The notes: a model not told the origin generated them from the letters alone. Counted from the stretch's first letter, positions 1-30,508 are shown. The stretch is 51,200 bases of DNA from Nitrospinales bacterium (GCA_046757665.1 JBHHYO010000011.1:1-51200), one strand, 5' to 3'. Translations and numbers: made by a program.

Positions 1-49
1 AGCCCGCCAAAAAAAGCAAACCCTAAAATAACCCATACCCATTAAAAAT

Positions 50-1372
50 ATGCCTCCGTTATCTCAGACCAAGCTGAAACAATTCGGCGAAGAAATGTAT
101 GAGATCCTGACTCGTTTGTTTCCCATTTGCCGTAGTATTACGGGCGATGGTGTACGGCAAACCTTGAGGATTTTGCAGGAACGCATCCCGCTAAAGATCA
201 TTGAGGTTCCTTCTGGAACGGAAGTCTTTGATTGGACCGTCCCGGATGAATGGAATATTTCCGATGCCTATATCCTGGACCCCGACGGCAACAAAATCAT
301 CGATTTTAAAGAAAACAACCTTCATGTGGTGGGATACAGCGAACCTGTAGATAAAAAACTCGGCCTCGATGAATTAAAGCCGCACTTGCATTCCCTTCCC
401 GATCTTCCGGACGTAATTCCCTATCTCACCAGCTATTACAAACGACGATGGGGGTTTTGCATGCGGCATAAGGATCTTCTTCAACTCAAGGAAGGGGAAT
501 ATACAGTTAAAATCGAATCTTCTTTAAAGCGCGGCTCGTTAACTCTGGCCGAATATATTTTGCCCGGAGAGCAAGAGGACGAAGCGCTTCTTTCCACATA
601 TACCTGCCATCCCTCGCTGGCTAACGACAACATATCCAGCGTGGTTATATTTGCCTATCTGGCAGGGCTATTGAGCAAGTTAAAACTCCGGTACACATAC
701 CGGTTTCTTTTTATTCCGGAGACCATCGGCGCGATCACCTATTTGAGTTTAAACAAGGACCATATCCTGTCGAGAACACGCGCCGGTCTGGTCGGTTCAC
801 ATTTGGGAAGCTCGCACTGCCTTCGTTACAAAAGGTCCAGAATGGGCAACGCGGAAATCGACCGCGTGGCCGAGCATGTCATGTCCAACTCTTCGCAAGG
901 GTATCAGGTCTATGACTACACGCCGAGGGGATCGGACGAAAGGCAATACTGCTCACCGGGGTTCAACCTGCCGGTTGGCCTGTTATCGCGAGTTGATCTT
1001 GATGCGGAAGGACCACCGAACGACTTTGGCCAATACCACACGTCATCAGATAATTTATCGTTGGTATCCGGCAAAAACCTTGCAGAAAGCTTGAACCTTA
1101 CCTACAACATCCTGAACGCGCTGGAAGTAAACCGCACTTACATCAACCAGGTGATGTTTTGCGAACCGCAACTGTCAAAACGTAATTTGCTTTCCGGATT
1201 GGGGGGCAACCGCCAGGCGACGGAAGAAAAACGAAGGATGATGTGGCTATTAAATTGTAGCGATGGCAAACATGATCTTTTGGACATTGCCGATAAAGTG
1301 CCCACCACTCTGAGTGAGATGGCCGAAACAGCCCAAAGACTGGTTGAAGCAGGGCTGATAAAACCTCAATAA
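50..1372 (+). CDS. DUF4910/DUF2172 family protein (M28 aminopeptidase-like domain with C-terminal winged HTH)
   Basis: Family motifs RSITGDGVRQTL, FDWTVPDEW, CHPSLANDN, PETIGAI, GSDERQYCSPGFNLP, YHTSSDN; C-terminal wHTH (SDGKHDLLDIA...LVEAGLI). Confidence 0.9.
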   Translation: MPPLSQTKLKQFGEEMYEILTRLFPICRSITGDGVRQTLRILQERIPLKIIEVPSGTEVFDWTVPDEWNISDAYILDPDGNKIIDFKENNLHVVGYSEPVDKKLGLDELKPHLHSLPDLPDVIPYLTSYYKRRWGFCMRHKDLLQLKEGEYTVKIESSLKRGSLTLAEYILPGEQEDEALLSTYTCHPSLANDNISSVVIFAYLAGLLSKLKLRYTYRFLFIPETIGAITYLSLNKDHILSRTRAGLVGSHLGSSHCLRYKRSRMGNAEIDRVAEHVMSNSSQGYQVYDYTPRGSDERQYCSPGFNLPVGLLSRVDLDAEGPPNDFGQYHTSSDNLSLVSGKNLAESLNLTYNILNALEVNRTYINQVMFCEPQLSKRNLLSGLGGNRQATEEKRRMMWLLNCSDGKHDLLDIADKVPTTLSEMAETAQRLVEAGLIKPQ

Positions 1373-1421
1373 CTTTTCTTGAACCAAAATTCCATTTTGG
1401 CTGAACAGGCAACGAACCAGA

Positions 1422-2612
1422 TTAGTCCGCCGCCGTGTTCGGGCGTGCACAGTAAAAGTCCCACAGGGGAAACGCTTCAGCAAAAGCATGTGCATGGGGA
1501 TTGATTAATTTTGCTTCTGGATCCACTTTTGGATGAATCAGGCTGGAAACCAGAAACCTCGCCTTGCCCAGAGCATTGATCACCTGATCTATAGTCGGAG
1601 CAACGTCGTAAAGCTTGTGACGATATTCGGTAATGACCGTCCAGGGGCGATCGGGGCTTCCAAACCAACCCGCCAGCCAAAATGTGCCGTTGGGTTCCAT
1701 GAGATGCAACGTCCCATCAGGTTTAATCAAGCGCCTGAATTCAAAAAGCAATCGATCCAGCGCGGCTCCTTGCGTCTGGTGCGTTTTTATATCATAAAAG
1801 AAAAATAACAACGCATCGCCCATATAAATCCGGTCAAAACTGGACGCGGGCAAAGACGATAAATAATTTTCGCAGGATATTGCATCCTCCAGGCGCATGA
1901 AGTTTATGCCCTGCCCCCAATTGGTTCGGGCGATTTCGATCAACTGCGCCGAGGTGTCGATGCCCAGTACTTCCGCGCCACGGGCTTTGAATTGTTGGGA
2001 AAAGAATCCGTTGCCGCAGGCGTAATCCAAAACTTTTCGGCCGCGCAAATCCATCGTCCCAAAATAGGATGAAAAGAAATGCCCCTGAACCCATTGATAA
2101 AGACCGGGTTTCAAATGTTTTCCATCCGGAGTAAATTTTTGATCATGCCACCACCGCCATTGCTCTTTGGTTCGACGGTTCAAAAACAGGTGGCGGCCAA
2201 CCGCCTGGTGAAACGTTCCCATGTGATTCTTGTCCAGAACCGTGGATTTGGGAGCCAGGAACTCGCTGTAACTGACACCGTCGGCGGGGTGCAAAGCCCA
2301 CGCATTTTTTAATGCCGCAAATAATTCTTCACCGCTCAATGCGTTACCCTTGTCCGCTTTACAACCGCTGGGGTCTATCATTAATCCTTCCGCATTCGAG
2401 AAACCCGTGCGCACCCACCCTTTCCCCTTGGACAATGCCTGAATCCAGTCGCTTGCAGATTTTTCAGAAGGAGCGCTCATCAGGGCCGTCATGGAGAAGG
2501 CGTCCACCTGAATATGACTTCGAACGCGCGGATTAGACAAAACCCAGATTCCGTCTCCAAGAGTTCGCAATAAAACGTCCTCGCAAACCTTGTATGTTAT
2601 TTGCTCAGTCAT
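1422..2612 (-). CDS. Class I SAM-dependent methyltransferase with ~180-aa N-terminal extension
   Basis: Motif I VLDYACGNG, GIDTS, FDRIY, RLIKPDG in the C-terminal half. Confidence 0.85.
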   Translation of the reverse strand: MTEQITYKVCEDVLLRTLGDGIWVLSNPRVRSHIQVDAFSMTALMSAPSEKSASDWIQALSKGKGWVRTGFSNAEGLMIDPSGCKADKGNALSGEELFAALKNAWALHPADGVSYSEFLAPKSTVLDKNHMGTFHQAVGRHLFLNRRTKEQWRWWHDQKFTPDGKHLKPGLYQWVQGHFFSSYFGTMDLRGRKVLDYACGNGFFSQQFKARGAEVLGIDTSAQLIEIARTNWGQGINFMRLEDAISCENYLSSLPASSFDRIYMGDALLFFFYDIKTHQTQGAALDRLLFEFRRLIKPDGTLHLMEPNGTFWLAGWFGSPDRPWTVITEYRHKLYDVAPTIDQVINALGKARFLVSSLIHPKVDPEAKLINPHAHAFAEAFPLWDFYCARPNTAAD

Positions 2613-2631
2613 GAACCATCCAACGGTTTTT

Positions 2632-3426
2632 TTATTTGCGTTTGGCCGTGATTTTTAAAAACTCCACCAGCAAGCCACTGCTGTTATAGAACGCAACTTC
2701 TCTTTCGCCGGCTTCCTGGGTTTTGATCATTTGACGTGCCTGGAGAGGAAAGCGCCGCTCCACCTCATCCAGGCTTGGAGTCAAAAATGAAAAACCACTC
2801 CATCCAAGCTCATCCACTTTTGGCTCAAAATCCCGGGTTTTATCTTCCATGAGGAGCACCCTTACTCCCAGCCGGGAATATAAAGGAAGTCGAAATTCCC
2901 AGCAGACTCCAGCGCAAGAAAAAATTTCACCGATCTCTTTTTCTTCCCGCTGATCCAATGTCACTTTTTTAAAACCCAAAGTTGCCAGAAAATTACCGGA
3001 AGCTTTTATATCCACCGTCGCCGCAACCAAACAAACAGGAGCGGAGCAACCAGGGCTTGAAATAATACGGTTGCCTTCATCATCCTCGACATCCCGTTTT
3101 TCAGGAGCTTGCATTAACAAGGTTAATGCAGAATTCGCGGATCGCCTGGTTTGCCGATTTATTGGCTTATGACAAATGAACTCAATACCTGGGCCAACCA
3201 TGGGTTTGGAAAAATTCAGGTAAGACAGATCAACACAACTTGCGTTTTGATTATGAAGTAATTTTTGCTTTTTCTCGTCGGGGACGAGGAGGTTCCAGGC
3301 GAACTCCATCGTCAAGCCCCGGGATTGCCAAAAAGCAACTTGTTTGTCGATGTCTTCTGTTTCCCCATAAATGTGGGACAGGCCCAAAATCAAATGGCGT
3401 GATAGCGGTTTTGGATTTTCAGGCAC
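2632..3426 (-). CDS. Tandem VOC/glyoxalase-like protein
   Basis: VOC-like segments GLSHIYGETEDIDKQVAFW, GIEFI, TVDIKASGNFLATLGF, FSFLTPSLDE, FYNSSGLLVEFL. Start moved to GTG 3426 (AAGG upstream, just after the stop of the preceding gene); ORF track start 3597. Confidence 0.6.
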   Translation of the reverse strand: MPENPKPLSRHLILGLSHIYGETEDIDKQVAFWQSRGLTMEFAWNLLVPDEKKQKLLHNQNASCVDLSYLNFSKPMVGPGIEFICHKPINRQTRRSANSALTLLMQAPEKRDVEDDEGNRIISSPGCSAPVCLVAATVDIKASGNFLATLGFKKVTLDQREEKEIGEIFSCAGVCWEFRLPLYSRLGVRVLLMEDKTRDFEPKVDELGWSGFSFLTPSLDEVERRFPLQARQMIKTQEAGEREVAFYNSSGLLVEFLKITAKRK

Positions 3427-3436
3427 GAGTACAGCC

Positions 3437-4843
3437 TTAATGGGTGATATGAGAACGGATTTGCTCGAGCAAAGTTTGGGCATTGACTCGATCGACCTTG
3501 CCATTTGGAGTTCGGGGAATTTTGTGAATCTGGTAAACCGCGGCAGGACGGGCCTTCGAGCCCAGGCTATGCGCGCAAACGTCCGCAAGCGCGACAAAAT
3601 CCACAGGCTCCACTGTCTGGACCAAAGCGACCGGGCGTTCCGCTCCTTGTTCGTCCCTCACACCGAGAACCACAGCATCCTCCACACCCTGGTAGCCGCA
3701 GAGCACGTTTTCCATCTGCTCCGAACTGATCTTGACGCCTTCGACATTGATCATGGTGGAACGGCGTCCGGTGAGAGTCAACCGGCCAGCCTCATCAATA
3801 ATACCGATATCTTCGCTCACAAAAGATTGGTTTGTGCCGCCCCTCGAAAAACTGAAAGTAATTTTTGCTCCCTCACAACTTGCATAACCTGGCGCAACCG
3901 CACCGTTGTGAATGACTAAAATTCCGTCCTCGCCAACCGTAACTGCCTGCGCCCCCCCGACAATAACGCCGGCGGAAAACTCTTCCTCAGCCTTTCTGCC
4001 CGGCAACTCAATACTGACGATCAAAGTTTCCGTCAAGCCATACGATTGCAGAACCGGCTTGCCAAACAAATTTTCAGCCGCAATGCAATCTTCCTGGCTC
4101 AAGGGAGCAGTACAAGATATCAGGGCACGCACCCCGTGCAAATCGGGCTCAAGAGCGCGGCGGCGCAACAAGTTGAGAATAGTGGGATTGATCCAAAGCA
4201 AATCGGGCTTCTGCGACCGAATCATCTCAATAAAACCGGATAATCGCAGAGCGGAAGCCACCGGCCCGACAAGGGCTTTTCCACCCGTCAAAATGGGGAG
4301 CAAAAATGAATTGTAAAGCCCATTGGTATAACACTGGCTCATGCTACCCAGATGTAGCAAATCCGTCCCCAGCCCCAAGGTATTCATAACATCTTCAGCG
4401 TTCTTTTTAACGGCGGACAGGGAAAGAGGAATGGCTTTGGGTCTATCGGTCGAACCGGAAGAGTGCATGACCCAATAAATATCGTCAGGCCAAAGCGGTT
4501 TTTCTTGTTGTTGGGAAAGGGGGGAAATGCCGCTCTTGTCCACTTTGAAACGGCATCCGGTATTTTCCCATAAACGGCGCCGTTCCGCGTCGGGTATCGT
4601 GGGCGGCAATGGTATGGCGACCGCGTTCAATCGCGCCAATCCAATATAGGCCAGCAAGCAATCGGGGCCATTATCAAAACAAATCCCAACCGCTTCGCGA
4701 GGCTGTATCCCGAAACTTTGCCACGCCGCCAGGCGCCGCTCGACTTCAGACGGGGATAGCGCTCCGCTAACTGTAAGGAGGCGTTTTTCCAGGAGCGCTT
4801 GCGTAAAGATTTCATCCAGAGGATTGCTGGTTTTCATCCGCAT
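3437..4843 (-). CDS. Class I adenylate-forming enzyme (acyl-CoA/acyl-ACP ligase)
   Basis: HSSGSTDRPK P-loop, SYGLTE, SEDIG, GRRSTMINVEG, PRTPNGKVDR; start ATG 4843 immediately after the cyclase-gene stop. Confidence 0.88.
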   Translation of the reverse strand: MRMKTSNPLDEIFTQALLEKRLLTVSGALSPSEVERRLAAWQSFGIQPREAVGICFDNGPDCLLAYIGLARLNAVAIPLPPTIPDAERRRLWENTGCRFKVDKSGISPLSQQQEKPLWPDDIYWVMHSSGSTDRPKAIPLSLSAVKKNAEDVMNTLGLGTDLLHLGSMSQCYTNGLYNSFLLPILTGGKALVGPVASALRLSGFIEMIRSQKPDLLWINPTILNLLRRRALEPDLHGVRALISCTAPLSQEDCIAAENLFGKPVLQSYGLTETLIVSIELPGRKAEEEFSAGVIVGGAQAVTVGEDGILVIHNGAVAPGYASCEGAKITFSFSRGGTNQSFVSEDIGIIDEAGRLTLTGRRSTMINVEGVKISSEQMENVLCGYQGVEDAVVLGVRDEQGAERPVALVQTVEPVDFVALADVCAHSLGSKARPAAVYQIHKIPRTPNGKVDRVNAQTLLEQIRSHITH

Positions 4844-4845
4844 TG

Positions 4846-5541
4846 TTACGGCAGTATTTTTCCCAAACTCGCCAACTCGTTTAATGGAAAGACCGCTACG
4901 GCACGGCAGGGGCAACCATCACCGCCTTTTAGCTTGGGTGGAGCGGCGCTGAGGAAAAACCATTCATCCACTTCGTCCAGCCGCAGAAGATTTTCCAGAA
5001 GCACAATATCGCGCCCGAGCAATATCAGGTGATTGGGAGCCGATTTGCCGATAACCATATTGTCTTTTGAATCGATGTTGGGAAAATCCATACCCAGAAG
5101 ATGCAACTTGGGCAAATCGGCCAAATACCGAGTCGCCGCCGGAGTCAGAAAGGGGCCTTCGGTAAAATATTCCTGGGAGCCCCATGTTTGCCTGGCCCAG
5201 CCTGTATCCAGTATCAGTTTTTCACAGCGCTCCAGATTCTCCATCGCTTCAAATTCCTGAACATCCAAAGGGCTGGTTTTGTCACGCGCCGCAAAACGGA
5301 GAATCCGGGCGGGACCGACCAGTTGAGACAAGGGAATCCGATCCACCGTATTGCCCTGTGGAATGGCATGAAATGGCGCGTCAATATGGGTGGCAACATG
5401 AGTGCCGAAGGTTACGGATTGAGCGGAACGAGCTTCTTTTTCATGAGTGGCAACAGATTTTATTTGTACCTTCGGCATATAGGGCGAGGGATATTGGACC
5501 ATGCCGTTTGCCAGGAATGTCGAAAGGTCTAAAATAACCAC
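4846..5541 (-). CDS. Cyclase family metal-dependent hydrolase (kynurenine formamidase-like)
   Basis: THVATHIDAPFH (HxGTHxDxPxH variant), LGMDFPNID, LLENL, GGDGCPCRAVA; GTG start. Confidence 0.88.
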   Translation of the reverse strand: MVILDLSTFLANGMVQYPSPYMPKVQIKSVATHEKEARSAQSVTFGTHVATHIDAPFHAIPQGNTVDRIPLSQLVGPARILRFAARDKTSPLDVQEFEAMENLERCEKLILDTGWARQTWGSQEYFTEGPFLTPAATRYLADLPKLHLLGMDFPNIDSKDNMVIGKSAPNHLILLGRDIVLLENLLRLDEVDEWFFLSAAPPKLKGGDGCPCRAVAVFPLNELASLGKILP

Positions 5542-5592
5542 TGATGCACCCAGGAATTTTTGATTGAGTTCTTCAAAAAAGCAATGAGAAAC

Positions 5593-5838
5593 CTATACGT
5601 TTTGCAACTTGCTCTCTATCAAGACGGACAGAGCTTTAATGGAATTAAAGTTTGTTTCATCCATTTCATCTTCACTAAAAACAACTTGAAATTTTTCCTC
5701 GCTGAACTCGATGAGACCGAGTATCCCAAGTGAGTCCAGCAAGCCACTTGAAATAAGCGGACTATCCGGGGTAAGAGCCAATTTTTTGTCTGCAAAAAAC
5801 GATTCCAAATAGCCTTGCAACTCCATTTCGACATTCAT
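5593..5838 (-). CDS. Stand-alone acyl carrier protein
   Basis: Acidic ~80 aa protein, GLLDSLG phosphopantetheinylation motif, C-terminal NFNSIKAL; start uncertain (ORF open to 5895). Confidence 0.85.
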   Translation of the reverse strand: MNVEMELQGYLESFFADKKLALTPDSPLISSGLLDSLGILGLIEFSEEKFQVVFSEDEMDETNFNSIKALSVLIESKLQNV

Positions 5839-5928
5839 TGATTTTTTTGTCGTGTTAAGCGATGTGCGGGATGTCTGTGGCATTATATTTTTCAATAATC
5901 GTTTGTTTGATTAATTTATATTCCGGTT

Positions 5929-6729
5929 TTAATTTTTCCCTGTCGCAGTCTTGACCAACCTGGATCGCAAAAACTCCGGATTTTTTACAAATGCGAATGG
6001 ATCGCTGGTGATCCTGGGCATCAAAACGGTAACCAGGGATCGAGCGCCAATCTCGGCAACCCGCCCTTGCCCCAGGGGAAAACTACGCATCCCTCCCTCA
6101 AGTAAAATGGTATCCAGATGCGGCCATGTGTTTGACGCCAGAGGATCCAGGTTGCGAACAAATAAACGTTCCATTAAAGGTTCACGTTTACCATCACGGA
6201 TCATCTCTCCCGCAAATTCCTTGAGGTAACGGTATGGACATTGAGCCAGCCACTCCACACGGTGCAAAAAACTGCACATTCTCCAGGGAACCCCAAGAAC
6301 CAGCACGTGTGCATCCTTGTGTTCTATCCATTCAAACAAAGACCCGTCTCCCCATGCGTCCCGGGGCCTTAGATTTGCGACTTCATCCGCCTGGGGCCCC
6401 AGGGCGGCAAATGAAAAGAAAGCGCTTGCCGTGCGCCGGGCCCTGGGGGTTTTTCTCAGCAATTCATTTACAATTCCGGTGTTGCCCGGTTCGTTATCCA
6501 GATCAATTACGCCATCATTAAATCCGGACGTGTAACAGGGCATAAGCAAGGTTCGATCCGGCCCTACAATCTCCAGTATTTTGCCCAATATAGCTTCGGG
6601 AACATCTTTTAAAGGCATGGGGAAAATCCGCGCAAAAGTCCATATCCCCGTGTAGGCAACTACCGGCCGGTTATCCCGAGGCAACAAGGTGGCCAATAAA
6701 TCGCCGAACTCATCCAACGTTAGATTCAT
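5929..6729 (-). CDS. AAC(3)/Antibiotic_NAT family N-acyltransferase
   Basis: TLLMPCYT, GIVNELLR, SFAALG, AWGDGSLF, VLVLGV, SFLHRVE, PYRYLKEF; start ATG 6729 or 6750. Confidence 0.88.
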   Translation of the reverse strand: MNLTLDEFGDLLATLLPRDNRPVVAYTGIWTFARIFPMPLKDVPEAILGKILEIVGPDRTLLMPCYTSGFNDGVIDLDNEPGNTGIVNELLRKTPRARRTASAFFSFAALGPQADEVANLRPRDAWGDGSLFEWIEHKDAHVLVLGVPWRMCSFLHRVEWLAQCPYRYLKEFAGEMIRDGKREPLMERLFVRNLDPLASNTWPHLDTILLEGGMRSFPLGQGRVAEIGARSLVTVLMPRITSDPFAFVKNPEFLRSRLVKTATGKN

Positions 6730-6793
6730 TCCTTTTCCTTCCGGTGTCATCGATGACGATTAAACAAGGATGCTTATGCAAAGGTCTCTTCCT

Positions 6794-8086
6794 TTAAGAG
6801 CCGCCAACTTTCATCTTCGGGGAAGACGAGGCTTGCAAGAGATGGTTGACCACGATCTTTTTTTTCACCATGCCTTCAAATTTGAGAATTTTGGTGGTGT
6901 GTGCCGGTGAGCAAGTCACATGGATTTCGGTTTCATTCACCTTGACCTCGCAATCCGTATTTTCAGAAGACACGTTGATGTGTATAGGAAGATTAAGCTT
7001 GACCGCCATCCGGGCTATTTCATCCGGCGACGATGAGTCGGGTTTGACCAAGGAAACATTTCCCAACTGTTGGGAAAAGACATCCGCCGGCAAAGCCTTG
7101 CGGGTTGCCTTCGCAAGTGTTTCCTCCGACAAATTGAGACAGTCCAGTTCGCCCACCTCCGCGATCAGACTGTAAAAAAGTTTTTTTTCCTTGCCGGCCA
7201 TGTGCCGGATTCGGTCGGAATACATTGAATGAACCCTGGCGCAACCCAGGACAACTTTTTCGGTGTTATCCCATCGGTTTTTAAGCAAGGGAGCAATAGC
7301 TTGTTCCGCCAGCTCAATAATTAAAATAGGATCCAAATCCTTGCAAACCCCAAAATGGCGTCTCAATACAATAACCATAACTTCCGTTGGTGTGTTTCCG
7401 GAACAACGCCCCATACCCAAAAGCGACGAGTCCACCAATGAGGCTCCATTTTCCATGGCGGCTATGCAATTCGCGACGGCCAGGTTCAGGTTATTGTGAC
7501 CATGAAACCCGATCGGCAAATCGACCACACTACGCATTGCCTGAATGTACTGGATGACCTGGCTGGGGAGCATACTGCCCGCGGAATCTACCAGATACAC
7601 CAAATCGCTTCCATAATCGGCGCTGAGCTTTACAACCCTGGAAAACTCTTCGGGGGGAAGAGCGTAGGACTTCATGAAATTGGTGCAGACATATAAACCA
7701 AGCTTTTTTGCTTCCGCAATGAATGGCTCGCTGGTTTCCACTTTGTCGATATTTATGCCAATTCGCACAAATTGCAAACCTTCGTCAATGCAAGCCCGCA
7801 AATCCTCCAACCGCGCAATGCCGGGGATGCAAAACATGCCTATTCTGGCTTTTCGAGTACCCGCCCGGGCGGCTCGGACGTATTCCAGGTCGCTGGCCGC
7901 CGCCCTGCCTTTGGTCAGGCTGGCATTGATGCCCAATCCATGACCGACTTCAATTAATCGGACTCCCAGTTTTTCCAGAGAGTGAGAAAGAATTTCCGTG
8001 TCGCGGGCAGTAAACTGGAAATCGATCACATAGCTACCATCCCGAAGGGTGGTATCAAGAATAGGAACTTCGCTATCCAGGAACAT
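6794..8086 (-). CDS. DRE-TIM metallolyase, 4-hydroxy-2-oxovalerate aldolase (DmpG)-like, with C-terminal extension
   Basis: LDTTLRDG, IEVGHGLG, YLVDSAGSM, GFHGHNN, GMGRCSGN. Confidence 0.82.
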   Translation of the reverse strand: MFLDSEVPILDTTLRDGSYVIDFQFTARDTEILSHSLEKLGVRLIEVGHGLGINASLTKGRAAASDLEYVRAARAGTRKARIGMFCIPGIARLEDLRACIDEGLQFVRIGINIDKVETSEPFIAEAKKLGLYVCTNFMKSYALPPEEFSRVVKLSADYGSDLVYLVDSAGSMLPSQVIQYIQAMRSVVDLPIGFHGHNNLNLAVANCIAAMENGASLVDSSLLGMGRCSGNTPTEVMVIVLRRHFGVCKDLDPILIIELAEQAIAPLLKNRWDNTEKVVLGCARVHSMYSDRIRHMAGKEKKLFYSLIAEVGELDCLNLSEETLAKATRKALPADVFSQQLGNVSLVKPDSSSPDEIARMAVKLNLPIHINVSSENTDCEVKVNETEIHVTCSPAHTTKILKFEGMVKKKIVVNHLLQASSSPKMKVGGS

Positions 8087-8209
8087 TAAGACCTAGCACT
8101 TGTTCCACTGAATGATATTTGGGTATTTTCCAAAAATTCGTGGACACGAGAAAGGTTTAGCTGAGGGAAAAATCAAGCCAGCCGGGATTGACAAGGGAAA
8201 GCAAACCGC

Positions 8210-8482
8210 TCAATTCAAAAATTTTCTTTTTTTGTTTCTGCCGAATTCCATCATCGACAGGTCGCGGTTCATTTCCAGCTTTTTAAACTCCTCCCAGTTG
8301 TCCCGAAACAGGTTGAAGCCAACGAGGTCGAGAGCCTGCATGATTTCTCCGTCGGAAAAACCACCTTCCGTTTCCTCGACCTCTTTCAGGGTGTCTTCAA
8401 AGGCTTGAAACAATCTGCCGAAACGTTCTTCATCTTCGAAGGTTTCAAACGTGATGAAATTTTTCATAAAATCATAAGCCAT
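8210..8482 (-). CDS. Hypothetical acidic small protein (90 aa)
   Basis: ORF with AAGGGGG RBS before ATG 8482; codirectional with flanking genes. Confidence 0.6.
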   Translation of the reverse strand: MAYDFMKNFITFETFEDEERFGRLFQAFEDTLKEVEETEGGFSDGEIMQALDLVGFNLFRDNWEEFKKLEMNRDLSMMEFGRNKKRKFLN

Positions 8483-8544
8483 GGTGTGATCCCCCTTGAT
8501 GATTTCGGGTAAGACGTTGAGAGGCGGATGAACCCTGCCGATCG

Positions 8545-9201
8545 TCAACTCATTTTAGAGTAAAAATTTCTCACTGCCAATAAAAAATCTTCAATATCGG
8601 CGCGAATGAGGTCAAACTTGCGGTTAGTCATGCGTTCCGGGGAGAAGACAGATCCTCCCACGGCCAAGGCGGATGCTCCGGCGGCGAGGTAATCGCCGAT
8701 ATTATGCGGTCCGACCCCGCCCACGGCCATCAAGCGAATTTCAGGAAACGGGCCTTTGATGTCGCGGAAGTATTCGGGTCCCAATTGGGAAGCGGGGAAA
8801 ACTTTAACCATGGCCGCCCGCGCCCGCCAGGCTTTCTCGATTTCAGTAGGTGTAAACGCGCCGGGGAAAAAAGCAAGGTCCTGATCGCGGCAAAAAGCCG
8901 CAACGTCATCGTTCAATGTCGGCGTGACGATGAACCGTGCCCCAGAAGCCAGTGCCGTCTGGGCATCCTGGCGGCAAAGAACCGTCCCCGCGCCTATACA
9001 AAGGCTCCGCGAATAATCCCTGACCGCCTGCTCGATCAGTTCGGGCGCGTTTTGCGTATTGAGGGTGATTTCAACGAACCGCAATCCCCCGGTTATCGCC
9101 GCTTCAAGAACGCCCTGAAGCGATTCGCGCGTCACACCGCGGATAATCCCCAGAACGGGTTCTTCCTCGAAACGGGTCTGGTTAAATCCGTCGGAGGGCA
9201 T
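8545..9201 (-). CDS. eda: KDPG/KHG aldolase
   Basis: VEITL, IGAGTV, GARFIVTP, PGAFTPTEI, VKVFPA, IKGPFP, MAVGGV; start ATG 9201. Confidence 0.9.
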   Translation of the reverse strand: MPSDGFNQTRFEEEPVLGIIRGVTRESLQGVLEAAITGGLRFVEITLNTQNAPELIEQAVRDYSRSLCIGAGTVLCRQDAQTALASGARFIVTPTLNDDVAAFCRDQDLAFFPGAFTPTEIEKAWRARAAMVKVFPASQLGPEYFRDIKGPFPEIRLMAVGGVGPHNIGDYLAAGASALAVGGSVFSPERMTNRKFDLIRADIEDFLLAVRNFYSKMS

Positions 9202-9212
9202 CAGGGAGTCGC

Positions 9213-10163
9213 CTAGACGTTCGATTCGATGGTCAGTTTGTTGTAGAACTCCAGATAGCCGTCTTTTTCCTGGGAATTGCGCACCGCCATTGCCGCCCGG
9301 GGATGAATGTCCAGAACCCCGGTAAGCATGTAGGGAATGGTGTATCCCCACTCGATTTTTTTCCGCAGATCAACAAACTCGTTTTCCAAAACTTCCAGGA
9401 TGGGGGTTATGTCGAACTTGGGATTTTTCAAAAATCCCAGCAATAATTCCAGCGGACAGTTTCCCGCCGCCCGGCCAATGCCGAAAATGGTGCCATCCAG
9501 GTAATTGACGTTCTGAATAATCGCCTCGATGGTATTGGCAAAGGCAAGTTGCTGGTTGTTATGGGCATGGATGCCGACTTCCCGCGATTTCAGGATCGAC
9601 TTGTACTTTTTGGCAAGGTAGGCGATTTGCTCTGAATAAAGGGCGCCGAAACTATCCACAAGGTACACGACATCAACCCCGCTTTCAGTCTCAATTTGCT
9701 CGAGGGCCTCATCCAGCTCCTTTTCCCTGGCGTGGGATACCGCCATGATGTTGATGGTGACCTCATACCCCCTGGACTTGATCAGATTGGCGAGGTCGAT
9801 GGCCTTGTCGATGTCTTTGACGTAGCTGGCGACACGCATCATATCCAGGTAACTTTCACCCTTGGGGATGATATTTTTCGGGTCCACCCGGCCGATATCC
9901 ACCATCGCCGAAATCTTGCATCGGTCCGTAGCATCTCCGATAATCGCTTCAAGGTCTTTTTCCGTACAAAATTTCATAGGGCCATAATCATTGCGGCTGA
10001 ACTGGGATTCATCGGCCTTGTAGCCCAGTTCGACATAATCTACCCCGGCGGCGGAGCTGGCAAGAAACACCTTGCGGACAAAGTCGTTGCTGAACTGATG
10101 ACCATTCATCAAACCGCCATCGCGTATCGTACAGTCCAGCACTTTGATTTCTTTTCGGAACAT
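9213..10163 (-). CDS. DRE-TIM (HMGL-like) aldolase catalytic-domain protein
   Basis: LDCTIRDGG, YVELGY, YLVDSFG, GIHAHNNQQLAFANT, GIGRAAGNCPLE. Confidence 0.85.
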   Translation of the reverse strand: MFRKEIKVLDCTIRDGGLMNGHQFSNDFVRKVFLASSAAGVDYVELGYKADESQFSRNDYGPMKFCTEKDLEAIIGDATDRCKISAMVDIGRVDPKNIIPKGESYLDMMRVASYVKDIDKAIDLANLIKSRGYEVTINIMAVSHAREKELDEALEQIETESGVDVVYLVDSFGALYSEQIAYLAKKYKSILKSREVGIHAHNNQQLAFANTIEAIIQNVNYLDGTIFGIGRAAGNCPLELLLGFLKNPKFDITPILEVLENEFVDLRKKIEWGYTIPYMLTGVLDIHPRAAMAVRNSQEKDGYLEFYNKLTIESNV

Positions 10164-10396
10164 TTAAACTTCACTCCATGCAAAGGCCTCTGCAAGAGAG
10201 GCCGAATTAAAATTTCAAGGATAGGATAAGAGATTGATTATATGTGGGTCTAGCCGTGCCGTCAATCGGAATCTACCAACCATGCGGCTTTACCTCCTTG
10301 ATTGTGGGCATCAAAAGGGGTTGTAATTCACTCTGCCAGGAAATACATTATATCGGTGATAAATTATTATAACCCATTTCAGGAATAGGTGATAAG

Positions 10397-10928: not shown

Positions 10929-11153
10929 ATGAGAAAATTTTTATTTGTTCTTTGCGCCGTATCATTGCTTTATTCTTTGGGTTGCGCGGAAAAAGCGGAG
11001 AAGAAAGAAGCTCCAAAACCCGAGGCCGCGGCTCCCGCCCAAACAAAGGCCCATGTGAGTGGAGGCGGTTCGGAGTCTCCGGCCCATGTCAGCGGAGCGC
11101 CAGCTTCGCCGCAACCTGCCGCCAAGGGAACGGAACACGTTAGCGGCAACTGA
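10929..11153 (+). CDS. Small lipoprotein with three HVSG repeats
   Basis: GGAGGAGG RBS; signal peptide ending in lipobox SLGC; Pro/Ala-rich mature part. Confidence 0.7.
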   Translation: MRKFLFVLCAVSLLYSLGCAEKAEKKEAPKPEAAAPAQTKAHVSGGGSESPAHVSGAPASPQPAAKGTEHVSGN

Positions 11154-11156
11154 TTG

Positions 11157-11840
11157 ATGCGCCCGACCAGACCATTTTTTCTTTTCGCGCCGAGGTTGTT
11201 TATTGGAGTCGTTCTCGCGGTATTTGCCGCCTCTGGAGCGACCGCCGCCCCCCTCTCCTGCCTGGAACGAGTATCCGTTCTGGAAAAGGAAAAGGAAAGA
11301 GTCCAGAAAGCGGGCGGCCTGTGGGCCTACTTTGAAAAATCGTCCCAACTGCGCGACCGCTCCGTCCAGGGCCTCAAACTGGATGGCAGTATCAATAAGG
11401 TCATTTCAAACCTGAAATACCTGTGCGAAACGCGCAACGGCGTTCCTTTAAATGATCTGGCGCTTTTCGTCTCGCAACACGTCCGCGAAAAGGGCGAGGC
11501 TCAATTTAAAGAAGAAATGCGGCTGTCCGGAAAAAGCGACGAGGAAATCGATTCCTGGTTGAAATTTTCCCGGTCGGCCCAACAAAACCGGAAAAGAACC
11601 CTGGACGCTCTTTCGCTTCAAAAAACCCTCAGCCGGGCGGCAACCTATATTGAAAAATATGTCCTATTACACAAAGGCGCCGATGCCGAAGATTGGCCGC
11701 GAACGCTACTCACCGGAGCACGCGAGTTGGCGGTGGGAATCGCCGGATTTCTTTCCACCGATCCCAACATGATAATCGCCATTCATGAAAACGCACAAAT
11801 CCCCTTTTGGGACACGGAAGAAAATTACGGAGGCTCCTGA
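11157..11840 (+). CDS. Hypothetical exported helical protein
   Basis: Hydrophobic signal-like N-terminus (LFIGVVLAVFAASGATA); begins 3 bp after the lipoprotein stop. Confidence 0.7.
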   Translation: MRPTRPFFLFAPRLFIGVVLAVFAASGATAAPLSCLERVSVLEKEKERVQKAGGLWAYFEKSSQLRDRSVQGLKLDGSINKVISNLKYLCETRNGVPLNDLALFVSQHVREKGEAQFKEEMRLSGKSDEEIDSWLKFSRSAQQNRKRTLDALSLQKTLSRAATYIEKYVLLHKGADAEDWPRTLLTGARELAVGIAGFLSTDPNMIIAIHENAQIPFWDTEENYGGS

Positions 11841-11994
11841 TACCGATTTTTCGTATCCATGGCCTTCTTGTTTAATGCGGTTTTAATGTCAACCCGCCGA
11901 CGGTTCCGCCATCCGGCGGCCATCCGCCGCGGCATCAGGAATGAAAAATCATTGATAATACCGTTATAAAGATTGACTTCAAGGGAGGAGCGAA

Positions 11995-12801
11995 ATGGGA
12001 ATCTATCTGATCATCGGCGGAAGCGGCGTTATGGGTACGGCGGCCATTCGGGCATTACGCACCACCTACGGCCAGGAGGCGACCATCGTCGCCAACTGGT
12101 TCGGCAAGGAAGACCCGGACTTCAAAATCGAAAACGCCAACCATACGGTGTTTGGAGACATCACCGATCCCGACTGCCTGAAAAAAATCCAATCCTTCAG
12201 CGGCGGCCGATTCGATGCCATGTTTTACGCCACCGCCCTGGGTGAAGTGGGAGTTCCCATCAAAATGGCTACGCCGGAGCAAATCAAGCAGTCCAACAAA
12301 CTGTCGTTCGACCCGATCCTCTATCTTGAAGAAAATCTGGATATCGGAATGATTGTCGCCTACTCGACTTTTTACCTTCTCAAACACCAACTGGGCAGTT
12401 ATGGCGCCATGGCCCATTCCAAGGAGGCCATCGAAAAATGGGTCCTGCAACCCGGCAAATCCAGACACGCCTGCATTCGCGCGGGGCTGTTTCAGTCTGC
12501 CTCATCCCGCGGCATCAAATTGCTCTTGAGAAAAAATGCCAAGCATCTGGATCAAATCAAGGACCCACTGCTCCAATCCTACTTCAGGGGCGTGCCACCC
12601 AGCGAGGGCATCAAAAAGTTTGAAGAAGGGATCAGTAACGAGGAAAAGGAAACCTACGGAGACAGCAACACAGACGCCGACAGCCTGTACGAAGCTCACC
12701 TGACCCTTTTTAAAACCGAAAACCCCGTTTTCGTCAACGTTTGCGGAAAAAAAATCTGGTTGAGCGACGAACCCTTGCTGTTGAAGGATCATATTGGATA
12801 G
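11995..12801 (+). CDS. NAD(P)-binding SDR-like oxidoreductase, possibly divergent enoyl-ACP reductase
   Basis: GGGAGGAG RBS; IIGGSGVMG Rossmann motif; YGAMAHSK (YxxMxxxK). Confidence 0.7.
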   Translation: MGIYLIIGGSGVMGTAAIRALRTTYGQEATIVANWFGKEDPDFKIENANHTVFGDITDPDCLKKIQSFSGGRFDAMFYATALGEVGVPIKMATPEQIKQSNKLSFDPILYLEENLDIGMIVAYSTFYLLKHQLGSYGAMAHSKEAIEKWVLQPGKSRHACIRAGLFQSASSRGIKLLLRKNAKHLDQIKDPLLQSYFRGVPPSEGIKKFEEGISNEEKETYGDSNTDADSLYEAHLTLFKTENPVFVNVCGKKIWLSDEPLLLKDHIG

Positions 12802-12920
12802 CAAATGAAACATCGCTTATTTTTCATTCGTTTTTTTCTTTATTTTTTGCGTTATTGCGGTAACCTAATAACAGCAAGATTTACACTTGAGGTAGCAAAA
12901 CAAATTACGGTCGGAATATT

Positions 12921-14666
12921 ATGGACGACACCAAAAAGAAATTGACCGCGAAAGCCAAAGTGGCTGTCAAATTATCCGAAGATGAAAACCTCGATTCGCT
13001 TCTCAAGAATGTTGTCAGTGAAGTAACGACGTTTTCCGAGCGCCTGACGGCCCAGATCCGGCGGTTGTCCGATATCGGACGGGCACTGTCCGGCCAACGA
13101 AACCTGAATGCGTTGCTGGAAATGATCGTCACCGAGGCCCGCCAGTTTACCACCGCCGACGCCGGCACACTGTATATCAAGGAGGGCAACACGCTCCGCT
13201 TTAAAATCCTGCAAAATGAAAGCCTGCAAACTTATATGGGCGGAAAGTCCGGAGAGGAAATTCCCTTTCCGCCAGTGGAATTGAAGGAGTCGAATGTCTC
13301 CGCCTATGTGGCGATGAAGGGCATCAGCGTCAACATTCCCGATGTCTACAACTCCGACCTGTTCGACTTTACGGGGCCGAAAAAATTTGACGAGTCCACG
13401 GGGTACCGCTCGAAATCCATGCTGGTGGTTCCCATGCGAAACCATGAAGACGACGTGATCGGGGTTTTGCAACTTTTGAACGCCAAAAATTCCAAGGGAA
13501 AAGTTATTTCCTTCTCGCCGGATTACGAGGAACTGACCGAATCCCTGGCCTCCCAGGCCGCCGTGGCGATTACCAACGTGTCGCTCATCAACGACATGGA
13601 GCGTTTGTTTGAATCGTTCGTCGAGGTCATGGCGACGGCCATCGACGAAAAATCTCCCGTGACAGGCGGACATATCAGGCGGGTAGCCGGCTTGACCATG
13701 GAAATGGCCGACGTGATCAACGAACAAAAATCGGGCCGGTTCGGGAAAATCAAATTCAATCCCGATCAATTGTACGAACTCAAAATCGCCGCCTTGATGC
13801 ACGACATCGGCAAAGTCACCACCCCCGTGGATGTCGTGGAAAAAGCCAAGAAACTGCAAACGATTTTCGACCGTGTACACCTTGTGGACATGCGCTTCAA
13901 ATACTTGATCATGAGGGAAAAGCATTTGAGCGCGCAACGAAAAATCAAACTGCTGGAACAGGGCGCTTCTCCGGAAAGCATGAAAAATTGGGAAGAAGAA
14001 TCAAAGCCCAAAATAGAGGAGCTGAAAGAAATAAGGCAATTCATACTTGAATGCAATAACCCCAGCGAATTTCTGGAAGATGAGAAAATCGAGCGACTGC
14101 AGGCCATCAGCCGGCTCACTTACACGGATGAAGACGGCAAGGAAGTTCGCTACCTGGACGACGATGAATTGGAAAACCTTTCCATCCGCCGGGGAAGCAT
14201 TACCGAAAAAGAACGGAAGATCATGCAGAACCACGCTGCGGTGACCCTGAAAATGCTCGAAAAAATTCCCTTCACCAAGAAGCTGAAAAACATTCCCAAT
14301 TTTGCGGGCGCCCATCACGAATTCATCAACGGCAAGGGCTATCCTCTGGGCCTGAAGGGAGATGAGATACCGTTTGAGGGTCTGCTGATGGCCGTTACGG
14401 ATATTGCCGAAGCGTTGACTGCCTCCGACCGGCCTTACAAAAAGGCCATGCCCCTGGCGGTGGTTTACAAAATACTCAGAGCCATGGCCAAGAACATGGA
14501 ACTCGATTCCGATTTGGTCGAGCTGTTTATCAGCGAAAACGTTTATGAGCGTTATATGGCGAAGAAGAAAGCCGAGGAAGGGAATGGCGGCTCAGCCCAT
14601 TCCTCGGAAACCACCCGGGAGCAGGCCGACAGCACCAACGTCGCAAAAGCGGTCAAAACCACTTGA
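12921..14666 (+). CDS. GAF + HD-GYP cyclic dinucleotide phosphodiesterase
   Basis: GAF (ADAGTLY, GYRSKSMLVVPM, IGVLQLLN); HIRRV, MHDIGK, HHEFINGKGYP, ALTASDRPYKK. Confidence 0.92.
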   Translation: MDDTKKKLTAKAKVAVKLSEDENLDSLLKNVVSEVTTFSERLTAQIRRLSDIGRALSGQRNLNALLEMIVTEARQFTTADAGTLYIKEGNTLRFKILQNESLQTYMGGKSGEEIPFPPVELKESNVSAYVAMKGISVNIPDVYNSDLFDFTGPKKFDESTGYRSKSMLVVPMRNHEDDVIGVLQLLNAKNSKGKVISFSPDYEELTESLASQAAVAITNVSLINDMERLFESFVEVMATAIDEKSPVTGGHIRRVAGLTMEMADVINEQKSGRFGKIKFNPDQLYELKIAALMHDIGKVTTPVDVVEKAKKLQTIFDRVHLVDMRFKYLIMREKHLSAQRKIKLLEQGASPESMKNWEEESKPKIEELKEIRQFILECNNPSEFLEDEKIERLQAISRLTYTDEDGKEVRYLDDDELENLSIRRGSITEKERKIMQNHAAVTLKMLEKIPFTKKLKNIPNFAGAHHEFINGKGYPLGLKGDEIPFEGLLMAVTDIAEALTASDRPYKKAMPLAVVYKILRAMAKNMELDSDLVELFISENVYERYMAKKKAEEGNGGSAHSSETTREQADSTNVAKAVKTT

Positions 14667-30366: not shown

Positions 30367-30508
30367 TCGGCGGGCCTCGCGACAAACGGTTAACCAAGGG
30401 AAAGCAATTATATGAAAACCATCGGGAAAAAGCAAAGCGGGCTTGGTTGAATCGTATCCCGATTTCAGTTATAACCCTATAGAGTCTAACCTGAAAACTA
30501 TTCAAGAA

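Follow-up and report, generated by a model that had tools for sequence, protein, structure and literature searches.

The eight-gene block and its boundaries

The DNA analyzed here is a stretch of 51,200 nucleotides (nt) from Nitrospinales bacterium (GCA_046757665.1 JBHHYO010000011.1:1-51200), a hydrothermal-vent bacterium, and by the window we mean that stretch at its full length. Our gene calls, obtained by listing the open reading frames (ORFs) and by profile searches against Pfam and NCBIfam, place eight intact and tightly packed genes at positions 50 to 8086, where a DUF4910 gene on the plus strand converges on a minus-strand operon of seven, transcribed in the order aldolase, AAC(3)-fold transferase, acyl carrier protein (ACP), cyclase-family hydrolase, ANL ligase, VOC-fold protein, and methyltransferase. 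A preliminary description of this DNA had proposed the same eight genes with the coordinates, strands, and order listed below, and had called the operon tight; both statements hold, the spacers calculated from the coordinates measuring 2–90 nt and the start codon of the ligase lying 2 nt past the stop of the cyclase-family gene. Likewise, that description saw no FkbH, and Pfam and NCBIfam found no FkbH/HAD loader domain among the eight proteins. The features, with their lengths in amino acids (aa) and the expectation values (E) of the profile matches, are as follows:

1..49, plus strand: left insertion junction, with the last codons and the stop (24–26) of an FTR1-cytochrome c permease gene, then a 23-nt spacer to the DUF4910 start
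50..1372, plus strand: DUF4910/DUF2172/HTH_47 protein, 440 aa, with an M28-like single-zinc fold (Pfam E 2.9e-96, 1.8e-39, 1.3e-18)
1422..2612, minus strand: two-domain methyltransferase, 396 aa, with a class I S-adenosylmethionine (SAM) methyltransferase domain (mean predicted local distance difference test, pLDDT, of the model 93.5)
2632..3426, minus strand: divergent two-domain VOC-fold protein, 264 aa, of a rare family (AlphaFold model and Foldseek)
3437..4843, minus strand: ANL-family adenylating ligase, 468 aa from the ATG at 4843 (AMP-binding E 5.5e-35)
4846..5541, minus strand: cyclase-family (kynurenine-formamidase-like) metal hydrolase, 231 aa (PF04199 E 4.3e-27, 95.5 bits)
5593..5838, minus strand: dedicated ACP, 81 aa (PP-binding E 0.029; Asp-Ser motif)
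5929..6750, minus strand: AAC(3)-fold (Antibiotic_NAT) transferase, 273 aa (Antibiotic_NAT E 1.8e-25)
6794..8086, minus strand: DmpG-like class II pyruvate aldolase, 430 aa (HMGL-like E 2.5e-37; PRK08195 262.6 bits, cut-off 229)
8087..8209: right insertion junction, a 123-nt spacer from the aldolase start to the end of the conserved small gene orf112

The eight genes constitute one insertion of ~8.1 kb into the convergent intergenic spacer between two housekeeping genes. The window begins at a contig end, with which contig C120 overlaps by 55 nt—there being 41 such overlaps in the assembly—and C120 carries the genes for the FTR1-cytochrome c permease, an M32 carboxypeptidase, an SH3 protein, and a TIR-NB-ARC-TPR protein. 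In all four of the relatives fetched, orf112 is directly followed by the permease gene and then, in the three whose contigs continue, by the M32 and SH3 genes, which synteny indicates that the C120–C11 join is real. Furthermore, a Logan contig of sequencing run X2, possibly from the source sample, spans positions 1–10200 of the window and extends past position 1. A 55-nt Logan record of run X1 (depth 5.6 versus 16) shares positions 26–55 of the window and continues with 25 letters not found there; this record represents a minor variant or another strain, which departs from the window right at the left edge of the cassette, the point at which the assembly broke as well.

The G+C content of the block is 0.48–0.50 against 0.548 for the genome, and the cassette was found neither in 40 relatives nor in 119 other genomes sampled from the phylum. 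The VOC protein was detected in only the window's own genome among 41 genomes of relatives, and in one of 120 phylum-sample genomes, while strong full-length DUF4910 matches within the relatives were restricted to G000 and G027, that of G005 being a fragment. The junctions revealed neither an integrase nor a repeat, short direct repeats not having been searched for. The cassette is horizontally acquired and self-contained. Scans for promoters and terminators gave counts close to those of shuffled sequence (12 vs 11.6 and 20 vs 17.7, respectively).

Proteins encoded in the cassette

With the 4-hydroxy-2-oxovalerate aldolases 8ih7, 4lrs, and 1nvm—its closest solved relatives, at E 1e-46 to 1e-48—the aldolase shares the TIM-barrel HMGL-like fold of the DmpG/BphI enzymes, the metal ligands (an Asp and a His-x-His), and the Arg; and the residues in question (Arg15, Asp16, His195, and His197) are conserved in 119–120 of the best 120 homologues. 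The protein departs from those enzymes, however, in a Tyr/His swap, in ~110 extra C-terminal residues, and in having no dehydrogenase partner of the DmpF type, a Pfam search of the eight proteins having found neither DmpF nor the DmpG_comm domain. Within the swap, Tyr19 aligns with His21 of DmpG and His286 with Tyr291, an exchange that recurs in 118 of the best 120 homologues, the remaining two being gapped at one column. We take those two positions to be occupied, in DmpG and BphI, by acid/base and stereo-determining residues. The swap therefore indicates a separate subfamily rather than a standard catabolic aldolase; and the equivalog model TIGR03217 is not passed (241 bits against a cut-off of 286), the subfamily model PRK08195 being passed with the score listed above.

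The AAC(3)-fold protein belongs to a small subfamily of 45 proteins (E ≤ 1e-3; 36–65% identical) and is encoded by the only Antibiotic_NAT gene of this genome. Its nearest solved structures are those of AAC(3)-IVa (E 1.5e-13), with whose HxxE motif its own His163-x-x-Glu166, invariant in 28 of 28 sequences, is aligned, that His being an Ala in PDB entries 6mn4 and 6mn5. FrbF, a solved protein of the same fold that presumably acts in a phosphonate antibiotic pathway, matches the family profile at E 2.5e-9, and the protein falls far under the cut-offs of all five NCBIfam models for AAC(3), the best score being 55.7 bits against 270. On the basis of family knowledge, we regard this enzyme as a candidate acyl-ACP:amine N-acyltransferase. 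The ACP itself is read in the frame of the ORF at 5593–5895, with its likely start at 5838; a 71-aa ORF at 5619–5834 was ruled out as the ACP, for it sits in a different frame. The PP-binding match listed above is sub-threshold, and the orthologues in four of the related loci treated below (L004, L007, L008, and L012) match at E 7e-4 to 6e-7, with the Asp35-Ser36 attachment motif invariant in all six of the cassette ACPs aligned. The genome has one phosphopantetheinyl transferase, of the AcpS type.

Searches by sequence with the VOC protein returned no Pfam hit and no PDB chain at E ≤ 10; of 1.84 billion representative proteins, 35 are related to it at E ≤ 1e-3. Its assignment to the VOC fold in the preliminary description was nevertheless right: an AlphaFold model built on 24 relatives (pLDDT 92.6; predicted template-modeling score, pTM, 0.90) exhibits the paired beta-alpha-beta-beta-beta modules, and Foldseek aligns the entire model with GLOD4, maize glyoxalase I, and PcpA (probability 1.0; template-modeling score, TM, 0.55–0.61) and, at lower TM, with 4-hydroxyphenylpyruvate dioxygenase (HPPD) and hydroxymandelate synthase. 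A protein atlas agrees on the fold, the nearest cluster being 57% archaeal, from Nitrososphaerota. The residues G21, E82, D115, G208, G211, S213, G251, and E255 are invariant, and H18, H86, and Q232 nearly so, with Ser213 occupying a position where VOC proteins usually have a His. The protein resembles the two-domain glyoxalase I/GLOD4 proteins in its full-length fold and in the His and Glu residues on the first and last strands of the modules, positions that suggest a VOC metal site; it differs from them in an identity of 9–13%, in the lack of a Pfam hit, in Ser213 instead of the expected His, and in belonging to a family of 35 representatives that includes ligase fusions. In two of the relatives, P0048 and the shorter P0052, the VOC portion follows an ANL ligase, or the C-terminal domain of one, in a single fused protein, and these fusions tie the VOC step to the adenylation step. 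A metagenome scan with the VOC alignment yielded one locus of 2.1 kb (L047), too short for synteny.

Among solved proteins, the ANL ligase is nearest to oxalyl-coenzyme A synthetases (E 2e-26). The cyclase-family protein exceeds the PF04199 cut-off of 23.1 bits with the score listed above and does not pass the kynurenine formamidase equivalog TIGR03035 (68.6 bits against a cut-off of 223). The methyltransferase has 37 homologues, 32–59% identical, and its SAM domain, located by profile at residues ~187–310, is preceded by ~135–180 N-terminal residues. Residues ~134–394 of its model match small-molecule class I methyltransferases with Z-scores of 15–19, and the matches of a whole-model VIA structure search all fall on that methyltransferase domain. 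The N-terminal ~135 residues, modeled as four strands followed by helices, are conserved in the 37 homologues; an atlas search with the first 140 gave a resemblance of 0.77–0.79 to small unannotated RRE/MftB-like proteins and an MftB-chaperone cluster, too weak to constitute a trustworthy lead.

The DUF4910 protein is ~58% identical to CA_C2195 (PDB 3k9t) over 421 residues, as counted from the alignment (E 2.2e-132), with the same three-domain architecture of DUF4910, DUF2172, and HTH_47. In the published structure of CA_C2195, a single Zn is bound through His189, Asp195, and His324 within the cleft most conserved in the family, and the winged helix-turn-helix (wHTH) domain of DUF4910 proteins is proposed to mediate oligomerization (PMC4000134). 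The residues aligned with those three ligands are all kept in the present protein. According to the same source, DUF4910 proteins are strongly tied to glycan loci, in 229 genomes of 10 clades (PMC4000134). Campylobacter jejuni needs a member of this family, Cj1295, to bear 5-N-(2,3-di-O-methylglyceroyl) pseudaminic acid on its flagellin, the removal of the N5-acetyl group by Cj1295 being the hypothesis of Hitchen et al. (2010; PMC3068675). By analogy with that literature, the DUF4910 protein is a candidate sugar N-deacetylase. A complex prediction for the DUF4910 and AAC(3)-like proteins scored 0.00, which value speaks neither for nor against binding.

Two further observations concern the DUF4910 family. 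A relative from the same order carries two tandem DUF4910 genes (L033/L034; G027:C2 ~3,153,300–3,156,500), 39% and 43% identical to that of the window, beside which tblastn at E ≤ 1e-4 detected none of the other cassette proteins in 40 kb. In the Actinomycetota locus L012, the DUF4910 frame at 11013–13436 (minus strand) extends for ~380 further residues and may encode a fusion protein.

Related loci and the putative sugar pathway of this genome

A pattern scan of species-representative genomes retrieved nine related loci in metagenome-assembled genomes (MAGs) of very different phyla, namely of Bacteriovoracaceae, Elusimicrobia, Magnetospirillaceae, Melainabacteria, Bacteriovorax, Pleomorphomonas, other Pseudomonadota, Alphaproteobacteria, and Actinomycetota. 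As judged by tblastn, the AAC(3)-like gene is accompanied by the methyltransferase gene in eight of the nine, by the DUF4910 gene in eight, and by the ANL ligase gene in seven, while the aldolase, cyclase, and VOC genes occur together in only one, the Bacteriovoracaceae locus L004. There, all eight genes are present at 30–60% identity, the seven operon genes in the same order as in the window; and this repetition of set and order, together with the single insertion seen relative to all four relatives, takes the eight-gene grouping beyond chance. The co-conservation check proposed in the preliminary description has therefore come out positive, with the core in nine loci of distant phyla and the full set in L004. 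In addition, 6 of 17 AAC(3)-like homologues with a longest contig of ≥15 kb lie on a contig identical in size to that of a close aldolase homologue, a proxy for a shared contig and a count that constitutes a lower bound, the best 120 of 3343 aldolase matches having been compared.

A Maf, PseB/PseC-type, cytidine monophosphate (CMP)-transferase, or NeuB gene lies within 10 kb in six of the nine loci, NeuB being adjacent in three. The neighbors assigned by Pfam in those six are:

L004: Maf-type flagellin glycosyltransferase, DegT, and acetyltransferase genes
L007: PseB/PseC-type and GNAT genes
L008: PseB, PseC, CMP-transferase, GNAT, and two NeuB genes
L010: GNAT and NeuB genes
L011: CMP-transferase, GNAT, NeuB, and 2-epimerase genes
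L012: PseB/PglF-type dehydratase gene

In the commoner variant of the cassette, an alpha-oxoamine-synthase-like class I/II aminotransferase takes the place of the aldolase, cyclase, and VOC genes and is either beside the ligase or fused to it. Proteins of 910–936 aa that end in such an aminotransferase domain are encoded at L005 5427–8159 and L012 7167–9977 (both plus strand), their N-terminal part being an ANL ligase by Pfam in L005 and ligase-like only by tblastn in L012; the chemistry of such proteins is unlike that of the aldolase branch.

For the present genome, the preliminary description had suggested that neuA/neuB, pse/leg, or glycosyltransferase genes be sought to the left of the window; Pfam found none on C120, and the cassette stands alone. 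Elsewhere in the assembly, one strong NeuB is encoded on contig C61 in a glycan locus with flippase, DegT, radical-SAM, AsnB, and hexapeptide acetyltransferase genes, to which the neighboring contig C58 adds nothing clear. The genome contains three Maf-type genes, one of them right after flgE; a CTP_transf_3 cytidylyltransferase gene (C96) that immediately precedes two of the three flagellin genes; a PglF-like dehydratase gene on C122; and 19 Polysacc_synt_2-type matches in all. The presence of NeuB, Maf, cytidylyltransferase, and flagellins makes a nonulosonic acid on the flagellin and/or a polysaccharide plausible.

As to the surrounding genes, the cassette is followed on its right by orf112, an Eda-like aldolase, a second HMGL-like gene, and then the EVE and orf228 genes. 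The block at 8210–10163 (minus strand; also L050–L062), in which the HMGL-like aldolase has 316 aa and is joined by the Eda-like KDPG/KHG aldolase and a protein of ~90 aa, was considered as a part of the cassette and ruled out as lineage housekeeping, conserved where the cassette is absent: 39 of the 41 genomes from the order carry its HMGL-like gene with 69–82% identity, and the block, always beside an EVE-domain gene, is syntenic in nine of the nine loci examined. The TTGACG/TATAAT site at 10265–10237 belongs to that housekeeping block, whose 316-aa HMGL-like protein remains under all the NCBIfam cut-offs. At 4.4 kb to the left of the cassette, C120 encodes at 4402–6369 (plus strand) a SEFIR/TIR-NB-ARC-TPR protein (656 aa, open at the contig end) that is likely a STAND NTPase of defense or signaling; an AAA_15/AAA_21 ATPase (595 aa, with OLD/AbiEii-like domains) is encoded among housekeeping genes of the window at 30443–32230 (plus strand), between pheT and an RNase R-like gene. 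In C58, ftsK at 5739–8047 (plus strand) is split between two ORFs of 484 and 285 aa that overlap, suggesting a frameshift or an assembly error.

Proposed function, alternatives, and known systems

We consider it probable, with appreciable room for doubt, that the cassette, being of the Cj1295 and CA_C2195 type, remodels the N-acyl group of a nonulosonic acid, and that it does so with an unpublished branch in which the acyl group is supplied by an aldolase. The sugar, of the pseudaminic (Pse) or legionaminic (Leg) type, would most likely be made elsewhere in the genome and be displayed on the flagellin and/or a surface polysaccharide. The identity of the acyl group, its loading by the ligase onto the ACP, the acceptor amine, and the deacylase role of the DUF4910 protein are what we infer from family knowledge and the literature.

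In the pathway that we envisage, the DmpG-like aldolase would join pyruvate and a small aldehyde to give a 4-hydroxy-2-oxo acid, as its family suggests. The VOC protein and the cyclase-family hydrolase would then tailor that acid or its thioester, the former either by a metal-dependent isomerization or epimerization or by an oxidative decarboxylation to a 2,3-dihydroxy acid, and the latter by the hydrolysis of a lactone (opening of a keto-lactone) or of an amide (as an amidase). These two steps are the least certain of the mechanism. The closeness of the VOC fold to those of the glyoxalase-I type favors a metal-assisted proton transfer on a 2-oxo or 2-hydroxy acyl species; as an alternative, a decarboxylation resembling that of hydroxymandelate synthase would yield, in the absence of FkbH, a counterpart of the Campylobacter glyceroyl unit that stems from the aldolase product. 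The ANL ligase, to judge from its family, would adenylate the acid and load the dedicated ACP, and the methyltransferase, by the same kind of reasoning, would methylate the acyl group. In the Pse pathway, N5 comes from the nitrogen of N-acetylglucosamine and is hence already acetylated; an unusual N5 acyl group would thus call for a deacetylase, as we understand that pathway. In keeping with the literature, the DUF4910 zinc protein might strip the resident acetyl group from the sugar nitrogen, after which the AAC(3)-fold enzyme, as others of its family lead us to expect, would move the acyl group from the ACP to the freed amine.

Several points weigh against this proposal. The 6.3 kb on the left of the cassette (on C120) and the 43 kb on its right contain no sugar, Maf, or flagellin gene. 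The link to nonulosonic acids rests on other genomes; among these, L005, L006, and L009 exhibit no nonulosonate or Maf marker in the available DNA, two of those three contigs being short. The chemistry of the commoner variant does not obviously end in an acyl-ACP, so that the shared core might do other than a simple acyl transfer. The cassette contains no reductase for converting a 2-oxo into a 2-hydroxy acid. In 3k9t, the two general acid/base residues of the M28 peptidases are replaced by Ser and Pro (PMC4000134), and with this replacement and one zinc site only, the DUF4910 protein is no more than a putative hydrolase. The sequencing runs containing the stretch were two DNA runs of a single study, possibly its source, and no RNA run. 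Finally, the literature searched, with subscription papers outside it, contained no enzymology of any cassette member and no mention of the aldolase branch.

The same carrier-protein acylation could be directed to another amino sugar of a polysaccharide or lipopolysaccharide (LPS), such as the nucleotide of a 2,4-diamino-trideoxyhexose or a 4-amino-6-deoxyhexose, an acceptor to which the position of the cassette away from neuB and maf genes in this genome would be congenial, as would the many dehydratase/epimerase genes (the 19 Polysacc_synt_2-type matches) and the DegT, hexapeptide acetyltransferase, C-methyltransferase, WbqC, and dehydratase genes flanking L004 and L012, which also serve deoxy-amino-hexose pathways. 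We nevertheless hold that acceptor to be unlikely in view of the adjacency of NeuB in three of the nine loci, the PseB/PseC/PseH/PseF-type sets in L007 and L008, and the sole published genetic phenotype of the family, which concerns pseudaminic acid (PMC3068675). Rather unlikely, too, is a stand-alone small-molecule pathway, in which the acid would be joined to a soluble amine (a polyamine, an amino acid, or an aminocyclitol) to form a diffusible N-acyl metabolite with no connection to glycans. In its favor are the isolated position of the inserted block amid housekeeping genes, the three of the nine loci that have no sugar gene in the available DNA, and the match of FrbF, with its presumed antibiotic role, to the family profile; against this stand the association of DUF4910 with glycan loci cited above and the block itself, within which a Pfam search found no exporter, regulator, or resistance gene.

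Other readings concern single enzymes. The DUF4910 protein may not be a deacetylase at all, in which circumstance the AAC(3)-like enzyme would acylate the free 4-amino intermediate (the product of PseC or LegC) in competition with the normal acetyltransferase, and the DUF4910 protein would have a scaffolding, editing, or other catalytic role. The replaced M28 acid/base residues and the wHTH domain proposed for oligomerization (both PMC4000134) would suit such a role; but the single zinc site and its cleft are what is most conserved in the family and kept here, DUF4910 accompanies the transferase in eight of the nine loci, and in C. jejuni the unusual acyl group sits on N5, which, as we understand the pathway, starts out acetylated, so that we judge this reading to be improbable. 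That the AAC(3)-fold gene simply confers aminoglycoside resistance amid unrelated neighbors, as its Antibiotic_NAT match and the AAC(3)-IVa structures nearest to it might suggest, is scarcely credible given its scores far below every NCBIfam model for AAC(3), the conservation of its neighbors across phyla, and the dedicated ACP that comes after the gene in the loci examined.

Returning to the remodeling of a nonulosonic acid, we advance tentatively, as a conjecture more apt to fail than to hold, that the aldolase, VOC, cyclase, and ligase branch is an FkbH-independent and reductase-free route from pyruvate and a small aldehyde to a hydroxylated, O-methylated acyl-ACP; that the swapped aldolases constitute, among the class II pyruvate aldolases, a functional class of their own that serves the acyl groups of glycans only; and that the VOC protein transforms the 2-oxo acid, or the thioester of that acid, with no need of NAD(P)H, through either a glyoxalase-I-like isomerization or a hydroxymandelate-synthase-like oxidative decarboxylation to a 2,3-dihydroxy acid. 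If true, this conjecture would explain how bacteria and ammonia-oxidizing archaea come by N-acyl groups such as the deoxy-aldonoyl chain on the flagellin sugars of Treponema; it would also mean that an entire tailoring function travels between phyla as a single plug-in unit, working in trans with a sugar pathway that its host already has. Many of the N-acyl groups on the nonulosonic acids of flagella, capsules, and S-layers are other than acetyl, and these groups shape immune recognition, phage attachment, and filament assembly. In the literature searched, no enzyme is characterized that takes such a group from a carrier protein and attaches it. A compact eight-gene block with mapped boundaries, lying apart from the sugar pathway, is a convenient unit for transfer into a host that makes Pse or Leg; and the enzyme questions that it raises are the role of a Tyr/His-swapped DmpG-like aldolase, that of a VOC protein found fused to ANL ligases, and whether DUF4910 is the N-deacetylase that has long been proposed.

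With respect to known systems, the aldolase-fed, stand-alone variant is new, while the gene set itself is known but biochemically unsolved. The preliminary description had suggested an undescribed acyl group or small molecule, which word "undescribed" is apt for the aldolase/cyclase/VOC branch and inapt for the rest, the deacylase idea and the gene association being already in print (Hitchen 2010; Das 2014): the neighborhood of DUF4910 with N-acetyltransferase, ACP, methyltransferase, Maf, and NeuB genes was described in 2014 (PMC4000134). As in C. jejuni NCTC 11168, where Cj1295 adjoins Cj1296/7, the DUF4910-family protein is next to an N-acetyltransferase (PMC3068675, PMC13130089), a likeness drawn from published descriptions; in a 2026 survey, cj1295 is still listed as a putative transferase (PMC13130089). 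Unlike the Campylobacter set, the present block has no FkbH/HAD gene and stands alone. The former set, we assume, lies inside a pse/maf island, where ACPs are accompanied by FabH- and HAD-type genes and no aldolase/VOC/cyclase set is present.

The analogy with that Campylobacter grouping of DUF4910, AAC(3)-like, ACP, and methyltransferase genes, drawn in the preliminary description, is corroborated by the ~58% identity to CA_C2195, whose neighborhood in Clostridium acetobutylicum (CA_C2186–2199) likewise includes an aminosugar N-acetyltransferase and an ACP, together with a Maf-like protein, NeuB, a nucleotidyltransferase, and a 'glyoxylase' (PMC4000134). That locus differs from the cassette in being a full glycan island with an ATP-grasp ligase, and Table 2 of the paper contains no aldolase or cyclase-family gene (PMC4000134). 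In Treponema denticola, the nonulosonic acid of the flagellin bears a 2-methoxy-4,5,6-trihydroxy-hexanoyl group (PMC13439194), whose formation needs the reduction of a 2-keto group, for which the present cassette has no reductase; the carbon skeleton of that group, compared by its published structure, equals an aldol adduct of pyruvate and an aldehyde with an O-methyl substituent, a type of product that would be within reach of a cassette that combines an aldolase, a methyltransferase, and acyl transfer.

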